DNA of 64,000 nucleotides from an uncultured Bacteroidota bacterium (lineage in GTDB: Bacteria; CLD3; SB21; JBBIRG01): assembly GCA_964609675.1 (NCBI GenBank), contig CAZSRX010000022.1, forward strand, positions 6,888 to 70,887. Reading direction: 5' to 3'. Shown here one piece after another: positions 13,738 to 23,063 of this stretch. Each line of letters starts with the position of its first letter. Position 1 is the stretch's first letter. Made by a program: the position numbers and the translations under genes. The notes beneath the pieces are model-generated. The model had not been told where the DNA came from. It did not search any database and worked only from the letters and a program-made list of their open reading frames with translations.

Positions 13738-14030
13738 ATGTTAAAAAAACTTGAATATATCAGACGATTAAAAGAAGAAATAAATCTTCCACTTTGAAAA
13801 GTTGCTGCCAACTTGATGTTGATACTTCTACTCTTAGCAAGGTTGAACGTGGAGAAAGACTAATGGCAATTGACTATATGAAACCACTAAGCCAAATCCT
13901 GAAAATTGATTACAAAAAAATTCAAGTTCGGTTTTTGGCTGACAGTATAAAAGCGAATTACGAGAAGTTAGTGTATTTAGAAGATGGATTGGACGCAATC
14001 ATTAAACAATTAAAAAAGAACAAGAAGTAA
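13738..14030 (+). pseudogene. XRE-family HTH regulator interrupted by an apparent 1-nt frameshift around 13792-13796
   Basis: The frame starting at ATG 13738 gives MLKKLEYIRRLKEEINLPL and then hits a stop. A -1 shift continues as KSCCQLDVDTSTLSKVERGER..., which aligns residue for residue with the HTH_XRE consensus GLSQxELAxKLGVSxSTISKIERGE. The stop codon overlaps the start of the next gene (TAATG). Confidence 0.4.
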
Positions 14031-17000
14031 TGCCAACAAAATTTTTTACTAATCAAGACGATAACAGTCTCCTTAAGAAGTTTGAGGGCGTATTTACCAA
14101 CATCGAAAGCATAAGACATTTTGATGCATTGGTTGGCTATTTCAGGGCTTCCGGTTATTTTAAAATACGTGCATTCCTTGACAAAATCCCTAAAATCAGA
14201 ATCCTTGTAGGAATAAACGTTGACCAGCTAATCAAAAAATATCATGACAAAGGCCAACTCTATCTTGAAAATCCCGATGAAACAAAAGCAGACTTCCTTG
14301 AAGAAATCATAAAGAATATTCAGGAAGCCAACTACGATGAAGTTACAGAAAAGGGAATCCTGCAATTCATTGATGACCTGGTAAGTGGTAAAATTGAACT
14401 GAGAGCTCACCCAAAAAAGAAAATCCATGCAAAGGTTTATATATTCAGACCAGCAACATTCAACGAATATGCACCTTGCGAAGTTATTACTGGCTCTTCA
14501 AATTTAACTGATGCCGGACTGGGTGCAAATCCTGAATCCAACTATGAGTTTAATGTTAGTTTGAGGGAATACGAAGATGTAAAATTTGCTACCGAAGAGT
14601 TTGAAAGGCTATGGGCTGAATCTGTTCCCATTTTACAAGCAGAAGCAGAAAGAATCAAGAACCAGACGTATTTGCGCGATGACTTTACTCCGTTTGAGTT
14701 ATACATCAAAATGCTGATTGAATATTTTGGTAAACGTGTAGATTACGACCCGTACAATATTGACCTGCTTTTACCTCCGAAATACATTAGGCTAAAATAT
14801 CAGTCAGATGCTGCCAATCAGGGCTACGCCATTATGATGAAGCACAATGGTTTTATTCTGGCTGATGTGGTGGGTTTAGGAAAAACGATTATTGCCTGTA
14901 TGATTATTAAAAAGTTCATTTATGAAAATGGTACTCATACAAAGGTTTTGGTTGTTGTGCCACCTGCAATTGAGGATAACTGGAGACGGACAGTAAAAGA
15001 GTTTGAACTGGATAATCAATTTCGTTTTATCACTATTGGAAGTCTGCATAAAGTTTTAGATAGAGATAATAATTCTTATCCTAACCCTGAAGACATTGAT
15101 TTAATTGTTGTTGACGAATCCCATAAATTCAGAAATGATTACACCGAAATGTACTTAGCTCTACAGGAAATATGCAAAATGCCAAGAAAAAGGCCTGCTG
15201 AAAATGGAGATTCAAGAAAGAAAGTAATTTTAATTTCTGCAACCCCTTTAAATAACAGACCACAGGATATTGAAAACCAACTTTATCTTTTTCAGGACAG
15301 AAGAAACAGCACTCTTGAAAATATCCGCAACTTACAGGAATATTTCAAACCAATTAATGAACAGTATAAAAAATTGGCTTATGAGAAAAAACTGAATATC
15401 AAAAAACTGAAAGCGCTATTCCAAAAGTTGCGAGATGATGTAGTGGAGCCACTTGTAATCCGAAGAACAAGAACAGACATTGAGAACAATAAAGAATATC
15501 TTGAAGATTTGGAAAAACAAGGAATAAAATTCCCCAAAGTTGGCGACCCCATTGCACTATACTATGAATTGGATGGGAACTTGAGTGAATTGTTTTTCGA
15601 TACCGTTTCGCTTATTACTAATCTTGATGAAGATGGGAATAAAATTGATGGTTTAGGATATTACCGTTACCGGGCTATTGAGTTTCTTGCTAAAGAGGAA
15701 GACAAGAAAATGTACGGCAATGTGGAATCCATATCGGTCAGGTTATCCGCCATTATGAAAACACTTTTGGTGAAACGCCTTGAAAGTAGTTTTTATGCTT
15801 TCACTCAATCATTGTCAAGATTTCAGAAAGCCATTGACAATATGCTGACAATGTTTGATGATAACAGGATTTTTATTGCACCTGATTTAGACATCAACAA
15901 ATTGCTCGCAGAAGGTTTAAGTTATGATGAGATTGAAGCTAAAATCAACGAAAAAGGAGGAAACAATAAAGAATATAAAAAAGATGCTTTCGATGAAAAA
16001 TTTGTTGACTTGCTCAGGCAGGATAAAGAAAAGGTGGATGATTTAATTGAACGCTGGAGTAAAGTAAAGAAAGACCCGAAGCTGATTGAGTTTGCAAAAC
16101 AAATGAAGGAGGAATTTTTTAAAACCGACCAAAACATTAGCGGCAAACTGATAATTTTTACCGAATCAAAAGAAACAGCAGAAGAATTAACGGAAAAACT
16201 TGCAAAGATTACAAAGAAAAAAGTGCTGACCGTAACTGCCGAAAACAGAAAGTATGTCGAGAGTACTATCCGGGAAAATTTTGATGCCAACCTTGAAGAA
16301 GAAAAATGGAAATCGGATTACGATATTATTATTACCACGGAAGTACTTGCAGAAGGCATCAACCTGCACCGAAGTAATGTAGTAGTAAACTATGATGTCC
16401 CCTGGAACTCCACTCGATTGATGCAACGCATCGGTCGTGTTAACCGTATCGGTTCAAGAGCCGACAAAATCTACGTTTATAACTATTATCCTTCCGCCCA
16501 TGGCGATGCTCAAATTCATTTGGTAAACAACGCCCTGCGTAAATTACAGGCATTTCATACAGCTTTTGGTGAAGATAACAAGGTATTCTCTGTTCTCGAA
16601 GAAAAAGGAGAAGGTGCTTTATTCGGAAATAAAATTCAAAAAGAGGAAAGCGAAATTCTAAAGTATTTGAATGAATTGAGAGATTTCAGAAAGAAACATC
16701 CTAAGATTTTTAATGATATTGCTAAAATCCCTAACAAAGCAAGGTGCGGAAGAAAAGTTCCCGAAGAAAGGCAACTAACCTTATTGGACACTGAAAGCGG
16801 TGAAATAAATTACCCGTTGCAAAACACATCACTGACCTATCTGAAAAGTGAAAATCATCCCGGTATCTTTTGCCTCATCACTCCCGAAATGAATATTATT
16901 GAAATGAATTTTTTACAGGCAGTCAAATTGTTTAAAGCTCCTGATTCAGAAAAGGCAATTGCCTTGCATAAATTACACCATAAACAAACATTGGCAGGTC

Positions 17001-22010: not shown

Positions 22011-22019
22011 ATAAAATTT

Positions 22020-23063
22020 ATGAGAGGAGAACCATACATAGTCAAACAACTACTTCAAAAGGCAAAAGATAGTGCTTTATTAGCAATAGAATACTATAAC
22101 AAACCGGCAGTATCTTTTAAATCAGAAGGCTTCATAGTAATGATGTGTATTGCATGGACTGCTTTTTTCCATGCCTATTGTTTAAAGAATAAAATAAAAC
22201 CTTGGTATAGAAAAAAGGAATTAGGCAAAAAGCCTCGTTTTGAATATATAACAGAGAAATTGCCTGATGGAACACTGATTAAAGATAAAAAATGGTGGGA
22301 ATTGAATAGATGTATAAATGAATTCTTTAAAGAAAAACCAGATACAGCCGTTCAAAAAAATATTGAATTCTTATCTGGTCTCAGAAATTTAATAGTACAT
22401 AGAAACTTACCAGAATTAGATGCAAGCATTTTTGCAGAATGTCAGGCTTGTATACTGAATTTTAATAATTACCTAAAAAAATATTTTAGCGATAAACAAG
22501 ATTTAAGTAATTTATTATCTTTTTCAATACAGATATTTAATAATGCGAAAAATTTTCTTGAAGCTTCAAATAAAGAACTCAAAAACAAAAATGCAACTGA
22601 GGTAGTAGATTTTATTAAAAGTTTTCGAAGTTCCTTATCAACGCAAATTTTAGAATCATCAGAATATTCTTTTAAAGCAGTGTTATTTCAAGTAAAAAAT
22701 CATGAATCAAAAGATGCTTTGGCTTTGAAGTTCATACATGAAAAAGATTTAACTGATGAACAAAAAGAACAATTGGGAAATATGGGAATTGTGCTGATTA
22801 AAGAGAAACAGAGCTTTTTAGACGGTGTTCCATCGGATTATATTTATACATATGAATGCCTTTTAAACGAATTAAAGAATAATATTAGCGAGTTTAAGAG
22901 AAATAAAAATTTCCACCAGATAAAAAAGCGAATATTAGAAAAAAATCCAAAACTAAAATATACTAGACATTTAGACCCTAATAATAGTAAAAGCTCAAAG
23001 AAAGATTATTATCATAAAGAAATAATTAATGAGTTTAAAAAAGTGTATAGTGAAACTACTTAA
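22020..23063 (+). CDS. DUF3644-like protein (defence-island accessory protein of unknown function)
   Basis: The N-terminal pattern ALLAIEYYNKP...F..EGF......AWTAFFHAY......NIEFLSGLRNLIVH resembles the DUF3644 family from memory. It is the last gene of the same-strand operon. Confidence 0.5.
   Translation: MRGEPYIVKQLLQKAKDSALLAIEYYNKPAVSFKSEGFIVMMCIAWTAFFHAYCLKNKIKPWYRKKELGKKPRFEYITEKLPDGTLIKDKKWWELNRCINEFFKEKPDTAVQKNIEFLSGLRNLIVHRNLPELDASIFAECQACILNFNNYLKKYFSDKQDLSNLLSFSIQIFNNAKNFLEASNKELKNKNATEVVDFIKSFRSSLSTQILESSEYSFKAVLFQVKNHESKDALALKFIHEKDLTDEQKEQLGNMGIVLIKEKQSFLDGVPSDYIYTYECLLNELKNNISEFKRNKNFHQIKKRILEKNPKLKYTRHLDPNNSKSSKKDYYHKEIINEFKKVYSETT

Follow-up and report, generated by a model that had tools for sequence, protein, structure and literature searches.

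A low-GC island in the window, the whole 64,000-nt stretch of DNA analysed here, carries a run of genes for a nuclease, an ATP-dependent motor and a DNA methyltransferase (MTase), and raises the question of whether they form one defence system and of which kind. The sequence-only reading saw five co-directional genes with gaps or overlaps of 1-10 nt. Four intact + strand ORFs (14030-17389, 17429-18259, 18261-22010 and 22020-23063) agree with that description; the leading HTH gene, however, is a pseudogene and one gap is wider, the spacing from 5′ to 3′ being a 1-nt overlap, 39 nt, 1 nt and 9 nt. All of the domain assignments are borne out by Pfam (PLDc_2, SNF2, Helicase_C, KilA-N, Eco57I/N6_Mtase and DUF3644). 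The view of the locus as a methylation-type defence operon also stands, and no PADLOC or NCBIfam model assigns it to a known system. With moderate confidence, the locus can be assigned to a large family of ATP-dependent R-M-like modules that have two components and spread horizontally, with the KilA-N and DUF3644 genes as add-ons.

The island has a GC content of 0.31-0.43, against about 0.51, and is flanked by nrdJ on one side and rnhB/rpsA on the other. A direct repeat of about 163 nt brackets it, with the left copy at 12887-13049 and the right copy at 24476-24637; identity between the copies is 94-97% in the repeat search and 97.5% over 163 nt by blastn. The left copy overlaps a short minus-strand ORF (12913-13203) with a weak IS110-like N-terminus, whose match to DEDD_Tnp_IS110 (E = 0.029 only) falls short of the cut-off. 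Downstream of the operon, a small nuclease-fold gene of the PDDEXK_3/GxxExxY type (23309-23680, + strand; Pfam PDDEXK_3, 2.2e-44; TIGR04256) is flanked by four repeats of about 80 nt (23134-23311 and 23679-23858; repeat search). It is probably another cassette outside the core; locus L094 also has a PDDEXK_3 gene, there between KilA-N and the MTase.

The first intact gene (14030-17389, + strand) encodes a 1119-aa HKD(PLD)-SNF2 translocase-nuclease. Its PLDc_2 domain (residues 104-195) lies N-terminal to SNF2-rel_dom and Helicase_C in Pfam and contributes one HKD motif only (H133, K135 and G155-S-S-N158). The motor carries Walker A GxGKT (282-286), DExH (362-365), SATP (403-406) and motif VI (799-806). 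An alignment of 31 diverse helicases of the family shows little or no variation in the HKD and SF2 motifs, and all are intact in the window. The top PADLOC match is 'HKD+Snf2' (2.6e-45). Patchy divergence inside the gene may mark a tract of recombination or stem from an artefact of assembly. At E ≤ 1e-30 the helicase family numbers 1168 clusters (50% identity), and its cultured hosts include Prevotella nigrescens FDAARGOS_1486, Capnocytophaga granulosa ATCC 51502 and Porphyromonas gulae DSM 15663. PGAP labels the helicase and its partner as 'helicase-related protein' and 'N-6 DNA methylase', nothing more specific.

The partner (18261-22010, + strand) is a 1249-aa MmeI-like (Type IIG/IIL-like) N6-adenine MTase with its own TRD. 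The chain opens with a REase-like α/β domain (residues ~1-150, with D68 and E76-V-K78), continues through a helical linker (~156-300) to an MTase domain with motif I (D512-P-A-I-G-S-G) and N758-P-P-Y, and closes with a hypervariable TRD/C-terminal region of the PglX-like type (~780-1249). The motif order X, I, IV, with the TRD C-terminal, is that of the gamma class, and all 45 partner MTases compared keep motif I and NPPY unchanged. Pfam matches are to Eco57I (5e-31), N6_Mtase and MmeI_Mtase. An early comparison had likened this enzyme to PglX and DrmMI. It is closer to MmeI/Type IIG: REase_MTase_IIG is the top PADLOC family, Type IIG models score 4.7e-82 versus 1e-26 for DrmMI, and only residues 1066-1196 of the C-terminal region resemble BrxX. 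MmeI and the Type IIL-IIG enzymes, including Cj0031 of C. jejuni, likewise unite N-terminal PD-(D/E)XK REase fold, helical linker, gamma-MTase and TRD in one chain; they differ in that the catalytic lysine position is not conserved in the window MTase family. Position 68 of the REase-like motif is D/E in 64/65 and position 76 is E/D in 65/65, whereas position 78 may be T, K, E, H or Q, with K in 8 of 45 partner MTases; the window enzyme retains a complete D...E-x-K. Since the REase-like fold and the conserved acidic residues are retained, the MTase could cut alone like MmeI, leaving the motor in another role. The TRD is hypervariable across the family, and in the window it is unrelated to that of relatives which are at least 90% identical over residues 1-760, a pattern that suggests specificity swapping.

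Gene linkage was assessed across a non-redundant set of 72 loci from many phyla, each with a full-length helicase homologue (34-100% identity), and the count was restricted to the 50 with at least 3.8 kb downstream of the helicase. In these reference-genome loci an MTase homologue follows the helicase on the same strand in 47 of 50. The gap is 30 nt or less in 40 of the 47, often with a 1- or 4-nt overlap. Helicase and MTase thus remain linked in homologous contexts across phyla; from the trio whose conservation was in question, the pair holds and KilA-N, present in 2/50, does not. The conserved unit is this pair, HKD-SNF2 helicase followed by MmeI-like MTase, and not five genes. Sister loci read HTH-helicase-MTase and then an ABC/SMC-like ATPase (SMC_N/AAA_23-like, not DUF499), with no KilA-N and no DUF3644; in the nearest helicase relatives (92-96% identity) an ATPase takes the place of both. 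More than 120 helicase protein clusters fall at 92-96% identity, in at least five different chromosomal contexts. So similar a helicase in unrelated contexts, together with swapped TRDs, shows very recent horizontal spread. Accessory slots elsewhere hold YhcG/DUF1016, AlbA_2-wHTH, Fic, RhuM, AbiEii, SIR2, AbiC, dynamin-PLD and similar genes.

Such a pairing has precedents, and to call the system undescribed, as had been suggested, was too strong. Morgan et al. (2009) predicted such a mechanism and a class of MmeI-like MTases flanked by helicases, for example B. subtilis YeeA/YeeB/YeeC (PMC2731913). A 2023 paper recorded a Cj0031-like Type II R-M CDS directly preceded by a PLD+SNF CDS (PMC9881135). 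In the Type-2 BREX-related (BR) DUF499 systems described by Rakesh and Krishnan (2026), an N-terminal HKD-Snf2 helicase is the restriction effector and an N6-MTase the modifier (PMC12839542). The present family resembles the 2009 class in placing an MmeI-like MTase next to a helicase gene (47/50 loci). By description, YeeABC is set apart by a DEAD-type helicase and a separate GIY-YIG nuclease, whereas the window has an HKD/PLD nuclease fused to SNF2 and no GIY-YIG partner gene was seen there. Morgan's group 'lacks the endonuclease motif', whereas the window family retains the REase-like fold and two conserved acidic residues. As judged from these gene comparisons, the locus is a helicase-MTase module of the predicted type whose regulator has been lost and which has acquired two exchangeable accessory genes.

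The first of these accessory genes lies, as originally noted, between motor and MTase. Comparison of its junctions with the uninterrupted locus L004 and with L011 defines an 871-nt cassette (17390-18260, + strand), made of a 39-nt leader, the 276-aa ORF at 17429-18259 and 1 nt, that sits exactly from the helicase stop codon to the MTase ATG. The protein matches KilA-N in Pfam (1.4e-19), phrog_2657 'transcriptional regulator' (1e-58) and PADLOC PDC-S22, a single-gene defence candidate (1e-132 over residues 1-271, a full-length profile match). It may act as a DNA-binding add-on, probably translationally coupled to the MTase. Elsewhere, KilA-N precedes a Type I hsdM by 1 nt and is found in accessory regions of prophages and satellites.

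The second accessory gene encodes a 347-aa DUF3644 protein (22020-23063, + strand; Pfam DUF3644, 2.4e-47; PADLOC PDC-S19, 1e-78) and occupies the 3′ slot of the operon, where other loci have the ABC/SMC-like ATPase or other passengers. DUF3644 has been placed in the HEPN superfamily (PMC3710099). The window protein carries both the profile of this DUF3644/EC042_2821 family (PDC-S19) and the Rx4-6H motif, in the form R122-N-L-I-V-H127 (Rx4H), which is intact and invariant in nine homologues. It is a predicted RNase and most likely serves as a second-line, abortive-infection-type effector. Homologues occur 3′ of another Eco57I-type MTase and 3′ of a Type I hsdS.

Both genes could be obligatory parts, for instance a sensor/regulator and a second effector, of one integrated, variant-specific five-gene system. 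This is unlikely given how they are distributed: of the 50 loci with enough downstream sequence (at least 3.8 kb), just 2 have KilA-N and none has DUF3644, and helicase relatives of 92-96% identity lack both and have an ATPase instead. Each also occurs independently, among Type I operons, prophages, satellites and unrelated contexts, and each is a single-gene PADLOC candidate. Integration would nevertheless fit the tight spacing (1-39 nt), with no terminator-like site between operon genes on the + strand, and the identical gene arrangement in an independent metagenome copy (L008). It would also fit the recurrence of KilA-N in the helicase-MTase junction of at least five lineages (window/L008, L011-L013, L094/L095, L096/L097 and probably L020) and a TRD-DUF3644 block shared with a second lineage, L101, at 65-69% identity. 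Because of this conserved block and the recurrent KilA-N, the words 'mere passenger' may understate a functional link. The five-gene system of the sequence-only reading is not borne out: its HTH gene is dead, and KilA-N and DUF3644 are variable cassettes that most related loci lack.

The dead gene is an XRE-type HTH controller (about 13738-14030, + strand). DNA alignment to intact 99-aa orthologues reveals that the codon at 13796-13798 has become a stop (AGA>TGA), that about 10 nt past it one nucleotide is missing, which shifts the frame, and that 6 nt are deleted near the gene start. The remnant is a 78-aa TTG ORF (13794-14030) in which the first HTH helices are missing; it matches PADLOC HTH_VI only at 2.5e-4, whereas the intact orthologues match HTH_VI (1.9e-10) and Control_protein (2.7e-9). 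An operator-like imperfect palindrome, TTTGACCAAATTGTCCAAACAGATTGGTCAAATG (13693-13752, + strand; inverted-repeat search), overlaps the original HTH start codon and lies in a stretch that is nearly invariant in L001, L003 and L004. It is the presumed binding site of a C-protein-like regulator, and in sister loci the upstream XRE-type HTH protein would act as such a controller at the conserved palindrome. With its HTH gene dead, the window operon may be deregulated or read through from upstream, and its activity in the host is not assured.

A silent, decaying remnant, with a dead regulator amid flanking IS debris and repeats, seems improbable all the same. The identical HTH lesions in L008, the bracketing repeats with their weak IS110-like fragment and the patchy divergence within the helicase gene would be compatible with decay, but four uninterrupted ORFs totalling about 9 kb retain every catalytic motif, although random hits would be expected in large ORFs before a 300-nt gene. 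The HTH remnant, moreover, still ends in a TAATG overlap with the helicase start.

Known multigene systems share parts of this architecture. In Class 1 DISARM, too, an SNF2 helicase (DrmD) precedes a large N6-adenine MTase (DrmMI) and a PLD nuclease (DrmC) is present, and its HMMs match in part; a difference is that the window PLD is fused to the helicase. PADLOC finds no DrmB (DUF1998) in the island ORFs and other large window ORFs, and the sole DrmA match is a partial one to the helicase core of HKD-SNF2. The DrmD equivalog of NCBIfam scores 150 bits, over the C-terminal helicase lobe only, against a cut-off of 610 (NF038317). For BREX (types 1-6), neither PglZ nor BrxC matches any part of the window, island included (PADLOC), and the MTase reaches 117.5 bits against the NCBIfam BREX_1_MTaseX cut-off of 500. 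The initial exclusion of DrmA/DrmB, PglZ and BrxC/BrxL holds for every island ORF and the other large window ORFs, and extends to DUF499. Type III R-M, also excluded early on, pairs a Res with C-terminal PD-(D/E)XK with a beta-class Mod, whereas the window has an N-terminal HKD/PLD nuclease and a gamma-class MTase.

The effector and modification logic is also that of the Hma/Type-2 BR systems, in which an HKD endoDNase fused N-terminally to a Swi2/Snf2 helicase accompanies an N6-MTase, as in the window. BR systems are defined by the DUF499 AAA+ ATPase (HmaC), and stand-alone DUF3780 occurs in 98% of Type-2 (PMC12839542). That the locus is a reduced derivative of such a DUF499-centred (Hma/Type-2 BR, possibly 'MANTIS') system, minus AAA+ ATPase and DUF3780, is very unlikely. 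The shared effector/modification logic is joined by a partial HmaA match (5.9e-29, PADLOC) and a second ATPase in sister loci, but the DrmD and 'HKD+Snf2' models score above HmaA, HmaB and HmaC yield no match, and the second ATPase is ABC/SMC-like (SMC_N, AAA_23). Neither DUF499 nor DUF3780 was found in the window ORFs or in the annotated neighbours at the ~72 related loci, which were the recurrent genes and the larger unlabelled ones (PADLOC, Pfam). Equally doubtful is a pair of independent defences, an autonomous MmeI-like Type IIG/IIL enzyme beside a stand-alone HKD-SNF2 of the SauUSI or Type IV kind, since same-strand adjacency in 47/50 loci, across phyla and down to 34% helicase identity, far exceeds ordinary defence-island clustering, and the REase-like motif varies at its third catalytic position.

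A two-component module is thus preferred. MmeI and the Type IIL-IIG enzymes act alone and need no ATP, whereas the window MTase type is nearly always paired with an ATP-dependent motor-nuclease; this near-obligate pairing argues against autonomous, ATP-independent restriction by the single MTase polypeptide. SauUSI and CglI/NgoAVII also combine a single-HKD PLD nuclease with an SF2 motor, and their cleavage requires dimerisation or translocation. By analogy with MmeI, Type III, Type ISP, SauUSI and CglI, the MTase would recognise a short, probably asymmetric motif and methylate host copies. On unmodified incoming DNA it would recruit or license the SNF2 motor, which would use ATP to translocate on dsDNA. 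Because each motor holds half a PLD active site, two motors are proposed to meet or dimerise in order to cut. A bolder formulation, put forward tentatively, makes the HKD-SNF2/MmeI-like pair an autonomous and distinct ATP-dependent R-M class, not a DISARM, BREX or BR fragment, in which MmeI-style methylation of a lone strand is coupled to motor-driven collision and cleavage by a split PLD site. KilA-N would then be a portable module, placed directly 5′ of N6-MTase genes of different R-M classes (the helicase-paired family and Type I), that regulates or senses MTase activity.

Characterising this family would close the gap that separates Type IIL, Type III/ISP and BREX-related systems, and would test the 2009 prediction of how enzymes that methylate a lone strand can be joined to a motor. 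Its rotating accessory slots (KilA-N, HEPN, DUF1016, AlbA_2, Fic, RhuM, AbiEii, SIR2 and others) are a promising place to look for embedded defence genes.

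The HKD-SNF2 helicase and the MmeI-like N6-adenine methyltransferase (MTase) of the window belong to an operon on the + strand. The helicase (1119 aa, 14030-17389) carries the Pfam domains PLDc_2, SNF2-related and Helicase_C and is followed by a KilA-N protein (276 aa, 17429-18259; Pfam KilA-N), the MTase (1249 aa, 18261-22010; Pfam Eco57I/N6_Mtase/MmeI_Mtase) and a DUF3644 protein (347 aa, 22020-23063; Pfam DUF3644). All domain calls of a sequence-only reading are matched exactly by Pfam. That reading had also described five genes, the first an HTH gene, separated by gaps or overlaps of 1-10 nt. 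In gene order, an overlap of 1 nt is followed by spacings of 39, 1 and 9 nt, so that the description fits all but the 39-nt gap. Terminator-like sites are absent between the operon genes on the + strand.

The HTH gene itself is not intact. DNA alignment with intact 99-aa orthologues reveals an AGA>TGA nonsense mutation, a 1-nt frameshifting deletion and, near the start, the loss of 6 nt, and what remains is a 78-aa TTG ORF lacking the first helices. A conserved, operator-like palindrome over the original HTH ATG is still present. Identical lesions occur in L008, an independent metagenome contig bearing the same chromosomal locus. The window and L008 show no difference over 20.8 kb outside two stretches: 14.9-16.5 kb, in the helicase ATPase core, where about 170 substitutions cluster, and 21.0-21.5 kb, in the target-recognition region (TRD) of the MTase, with 13. 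This clustering could reflect an allele recombination tract or assembly chimerism among near-identical community copies.

PADLOC assigns the locus to no known multi-gene system, in agreement with the earlier view of a non-canonical set. For the helicase, the unnamed 'HKD+Snf2' profile ranks best (2.6e-45), followed by DrmD (3.7e-36), DpdE and HmaA. Membership in Hma is ruled out, as HmaB and HmaC have no matches. DrmA/DrmB, PglZ, BrxC/BrxL and DUF499 are encoded nowhere in the window, and the absences by which DISARM (no DrmA/DrmB) and BREX (no PglZ, BrxC or BrxL) had been set aside therefore hold across it. The curated NCBIfam cut-offs for DrmD (150 vs 610 bits), PglX (117 vs 500 bits) and a PLD anti-phage protein (118 vs 1100 bits) are all missed widely. 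The MTase had been called Eco57I/PglX/DrmMI-like; Pfam supports the Eco57I part, whereas PADLOC places Type IIG models (4.7e-82) far above PglX (7e-28) and DrmMI (1e-26). The KilA-N and DUF3644 proteins match PDC-S22 (1e-132) and PDC-S19 (1e-78), respectively, both single-gene 'phage defence candidates' in PADLOC.

Conservation was assessed at two depths. Helicase relatives at 92-96% identity comprise more than 120 protein clusters, every one of 1119 aa, and come from metagenome-assembled genomes (MAGs) labelled as several different phyla, labels that may include mis-binned contigs. Each of the five close relatives that were inspected occupies a chromosomal context of its own. The closest inspected relatives share an arrangement of intact HTH gene, helicase, 2-nt gap, MTase and then a 518-aa SMC_N/AAA_23-type ATPase, and neither KilA-N nor DUF3644 is found in any of them. 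Distinct flanking genes, including those in a 3.97-Mb chromosome (L001) and a 1.4-Mb scaffold (L006), show that the insertions of related loci are independent. At greater depth, an exhaustive HMMER search with the helicase yielded 1168 clusters at 50% identity (E<=1e-30), and a profile built from 31 diverse helicases retrieved 80 loci out of reference genomes. A scripted census then covered 72 non-redundant loci with a full-length helicase, 50 of them with at least 3.8 kb downstream, MTase homology being defined as a match to the N-terminal 760 aa of the MTase. An MTase homologue lies downstream of the helicase on the same strand in 47 of these 50 loci, at a distance of no more than 30 nt in 40 of the 47 and often with a 1- or 4-nt overlap. 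This linkage persists down to 34% helicase identity. Cultured carriers of the family include Prevotella nigrescens FDAARGOS_1486, Capnocytophaga granulosa ATCC 51502, Porphyromonas gulae DSM 15663 and Winogradskyella echinorum KCTC 22026. The ATPase is found 3′ of the MTase in 11 loci, KilA-N in two of the 50 (L011 and L039, with an extra fragment in L020, a locus truncated where its contig stops) and DUF3644 in none. Because linkage is so frequent and the other two genes so rare, the helicase-MTase pair is the conserved unit. Of the proposed HKD-SNF2/KilA-N/MTase trio, the helicase-MTase linkage stands but KilA-N is not a constant member, and the five genes do not hold together as one set, with the HTH gene dead.

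Of the two core proteins, the helicase contains only one HKD motif (H133, K135, G155-S-S-N158), and its Walker A, DExH, SATP and motif VI are intact; the HKD and SF2 motifs are invariant or nearly so across the family. Since a single HKD motif provides half an active site, cleavage should need two copies. In the MTase, motif I and NPPY are invariant and residues 1-760 are at least 90% identical to close relatives, whereas the TRD is unrelated among those same relatives and hypervariable family-wide. The TRD type of the window resembles the BrxX C-terminal region and is seen again in eight other family loci. In the REase-like domain of the MTase, 64 of 65 family members have D or E at position 68 and every one has E or D at position 76 (D68 and E76 in the window), and residue 78 differs between members (T, K, E, H or Q), with K in the window. 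An absent lysine is no proof of inactivity, as illustrated by BamHI (E-x-E) and BglII (E-x-Q), and the domain may or may not cut DNA.

Other variations on the MTase are found among relatives. In ATPase-linked loci (L001-L007), the 3′ end of the MTase gene overlaps the start of an ABC/SMC-like ATPase gene, and a conserved C-terminal tail of ~70 aa, absent from the window MTase, may be an ATPase docking site. The partner MTase of a further related locus (L096, 7835-12013; 1392 aa) carries an additional DUF559 (Vsr-like endonuclease) domain. In Prevotella nigrescens FDAARGOS_1486 (L117; NZ_CP082843.1, 379667-390856), the HTH-helicase-MTase genes are followed by two inverted partial genes, annotated 'Eco57I restriction-modification methylase domain', around an ATP-binding protein; these resemble a reserve of TRD cassettes for programmed inversion.

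Family loci have variable slots between the two core genes and immediately to either side of them. In annotated representatives, these slots hold the classic passenger set of R-M operons: YhcG/DUF1016 PD-(D/E)XK proteins (7 loci), Schlafen/AlbA_2-wHTH, Fic/DOC, RhuM, AbiEii, DUF4062, DUF932, an HD phosphohydrolase, a dynamin-like GTPase with a PLD domain, SIR2_2, an OLD/AbiL-like ABC ATPase, AAA_14-DUF4143, AbiC and HipA. KilA-N and DUF3644 fit this passenger pattern. In L004, a related locus with an uninterrupted junction, only 'AT' separates the helicase stop TAA from the MTase ATG. The window cassette sits exactly between helicase stop and MTase ATG and consists of a 39-nt leader, the 831-nt KilA-N ORF and 1 nt; a near-identical cassette occupies the same junction in a Sphingobacteriales locus. 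KilA-N homologues at 86% and 77% identity likewise lie between an HKD-SNF2 helicase and its MTase, one at 75% lies 1 nt 5′ of a Type I hsdM, and others at 55-62% lie near the integrase, in the accessory region, in Staphylococcus phage EW and Streptococcus satellite phages. The family is labelled 'transcriptional regulator' in PHROGs, and the helical C-terminal domain of the protein drew no family assignment. A suspected likeness of this C-terminal half to RhuM was ruled out by BLASTP.

Homologues of 75-97% identity (window, L011, L094, L096 and L098) are placed directly 5′ of N6-MTase genes, in HKD-SNF2 systems and one Type I hsdM-hsdS operon, mostly with a 1-nt gap; the gap is 6 nt in L096, and a PDDEXK_3 gene intervenes in L094. 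The cassette thus seems to track MTase starts across R-M classes. The leader of 39 nt contains a palindromic 10-mer, TCGAATTCGA (17395-17404), of which a second copy lies inside the KilA-N ORF (17640-17649). L011 has the two copies at the same positions, and L094 and L096 keep the internal copy only. The 10-mer may be either a binding site or a scar left by insertion.

The DUF3644 domain belongs to HEPN and is said to be present in R-M operons (PMC3710099). Both HEC-08, a validated embedded defence gene, and an Ishtar anti-plasmid protein have it at the N-terminus. The window protein has an Rx4H motif (R122...H127) that is invariant in nine homologues. One homologue (L101, 69% identity) lies 38 nt 3′ of an Eco57I-type MTase fragment that is 65% identical to residues 767-1248 of the window MTase; another lies 13 nt 3′ of a Type I hsdS, and further ones are found among NTPases and beside dnaB. 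As L101 shares it, the block of TRD and HEPN gene is older than the window locus, and its arrangement makes some functional link between the two possible.

The operon lies in a low-GC island (GC 0.31-0.43 vs about 0.51) flanked by the core genes nrdJ (9196-12357, -) and rnhB/rpsA (24958-27664, -). The island has no tRNA gene as a marker and no integrase, and searches of the E. coli genome with the island and its flank gave no matches. A direct repeat of ~163 nt (about 97% identity) brackets the island at 12887-13049 and 24476-24637, with a further pair at 13277-13299 and 24632-24654. About 227 nt split the left copy and encode an N-terminus with a weak likeness to IS110, a sub-threshold match (E=0.029). 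A short ORF tail at 24270-24437 (+), suspected to be an HsdR C-terminal remnant, has no Pfam match. Within the island, a PDDEXK_3/GxxExxY gene (23309-23680) is flanked by four ~80-nt repeat copies (in 23134-23311 and 23679-23858) whose CCACGGAG.../...CTCCGTG segments complement each other, giving the copies the look of a REP- or MITE-like element. Elsewhere in the window, and with no link made to the island, the - strand encodes a 997-aa UvrD-family helicase with an N-terminal extension of ~290 aa (29106-32099), a 1757-aa ORF without a PADLOC match (38888-44161) and a 1046-aa protein with a C-terminal Ser/Thr-kinase domain (50593-53733; PADLOC PD-T4-6-like, 1e-83).

The most economical reading of the core pair would be a Type I/III-like division of labour between MTase and helicase, in line with the 2009 proposal of Morgan et al. 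for helicase-flanked MmeI homologues (PMC2731913). The MTase-TRD would read a short motif and mark it. On unmarked DNA, it would instead engage the SNF2 motor, whose translocation would bring two HKD domains together to cut. The HTH protein would be a C-protein-like controller, dead in the window copy, KilA-N a DNA-binding cassette coupled to the MTase start, and the HEPN protein (DUF3644) a back-up RNase.

The 2009 study predicted this class and described it as having 'received little attention' (PMC2731913). A 2023 paper noted a PLD+SNF CDS directly 5′ of a Cj0031-like Type II R-M CDS (PMC9881135). An N-terminal HKD-Snf2 helicase and an N6-MTase also occur within the DUF499/DUF3780 'Type-2 BR' systems (PMC12839542, 2026); the window shares this pair, whereas the defining DUF499 and DUF3780 are not found in it. 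The 'MANTIS' preprint (2026, 10.64898/2026.09.23.753747), as far as its accessible text goes, concerns a BREX-related system with dual ATPase, hemimethylation and cleavage, and its term counts (PLD 6, HKD 1, helicase 12, BrxC 11, DUF499 2, SNF2 0) suggest that the system is of the BrxC/DUF499 type and includes a PLD nuclease. Neither experimental work on the two-gene HKD-SNF2/MmeI-like family nor a name for it was found in the literature, in which the preprint is represented by its vocabulary. The earlier word 'undescribed' goes too far, as the concept was predicted in 2009 and the pair is present within Type-2 BR. The family is widespread, unnamed and uncharacterised, yet conceptually anticipated, and to it the window itself adds an inactivated regulator gene and a pair of accessory cassettes.
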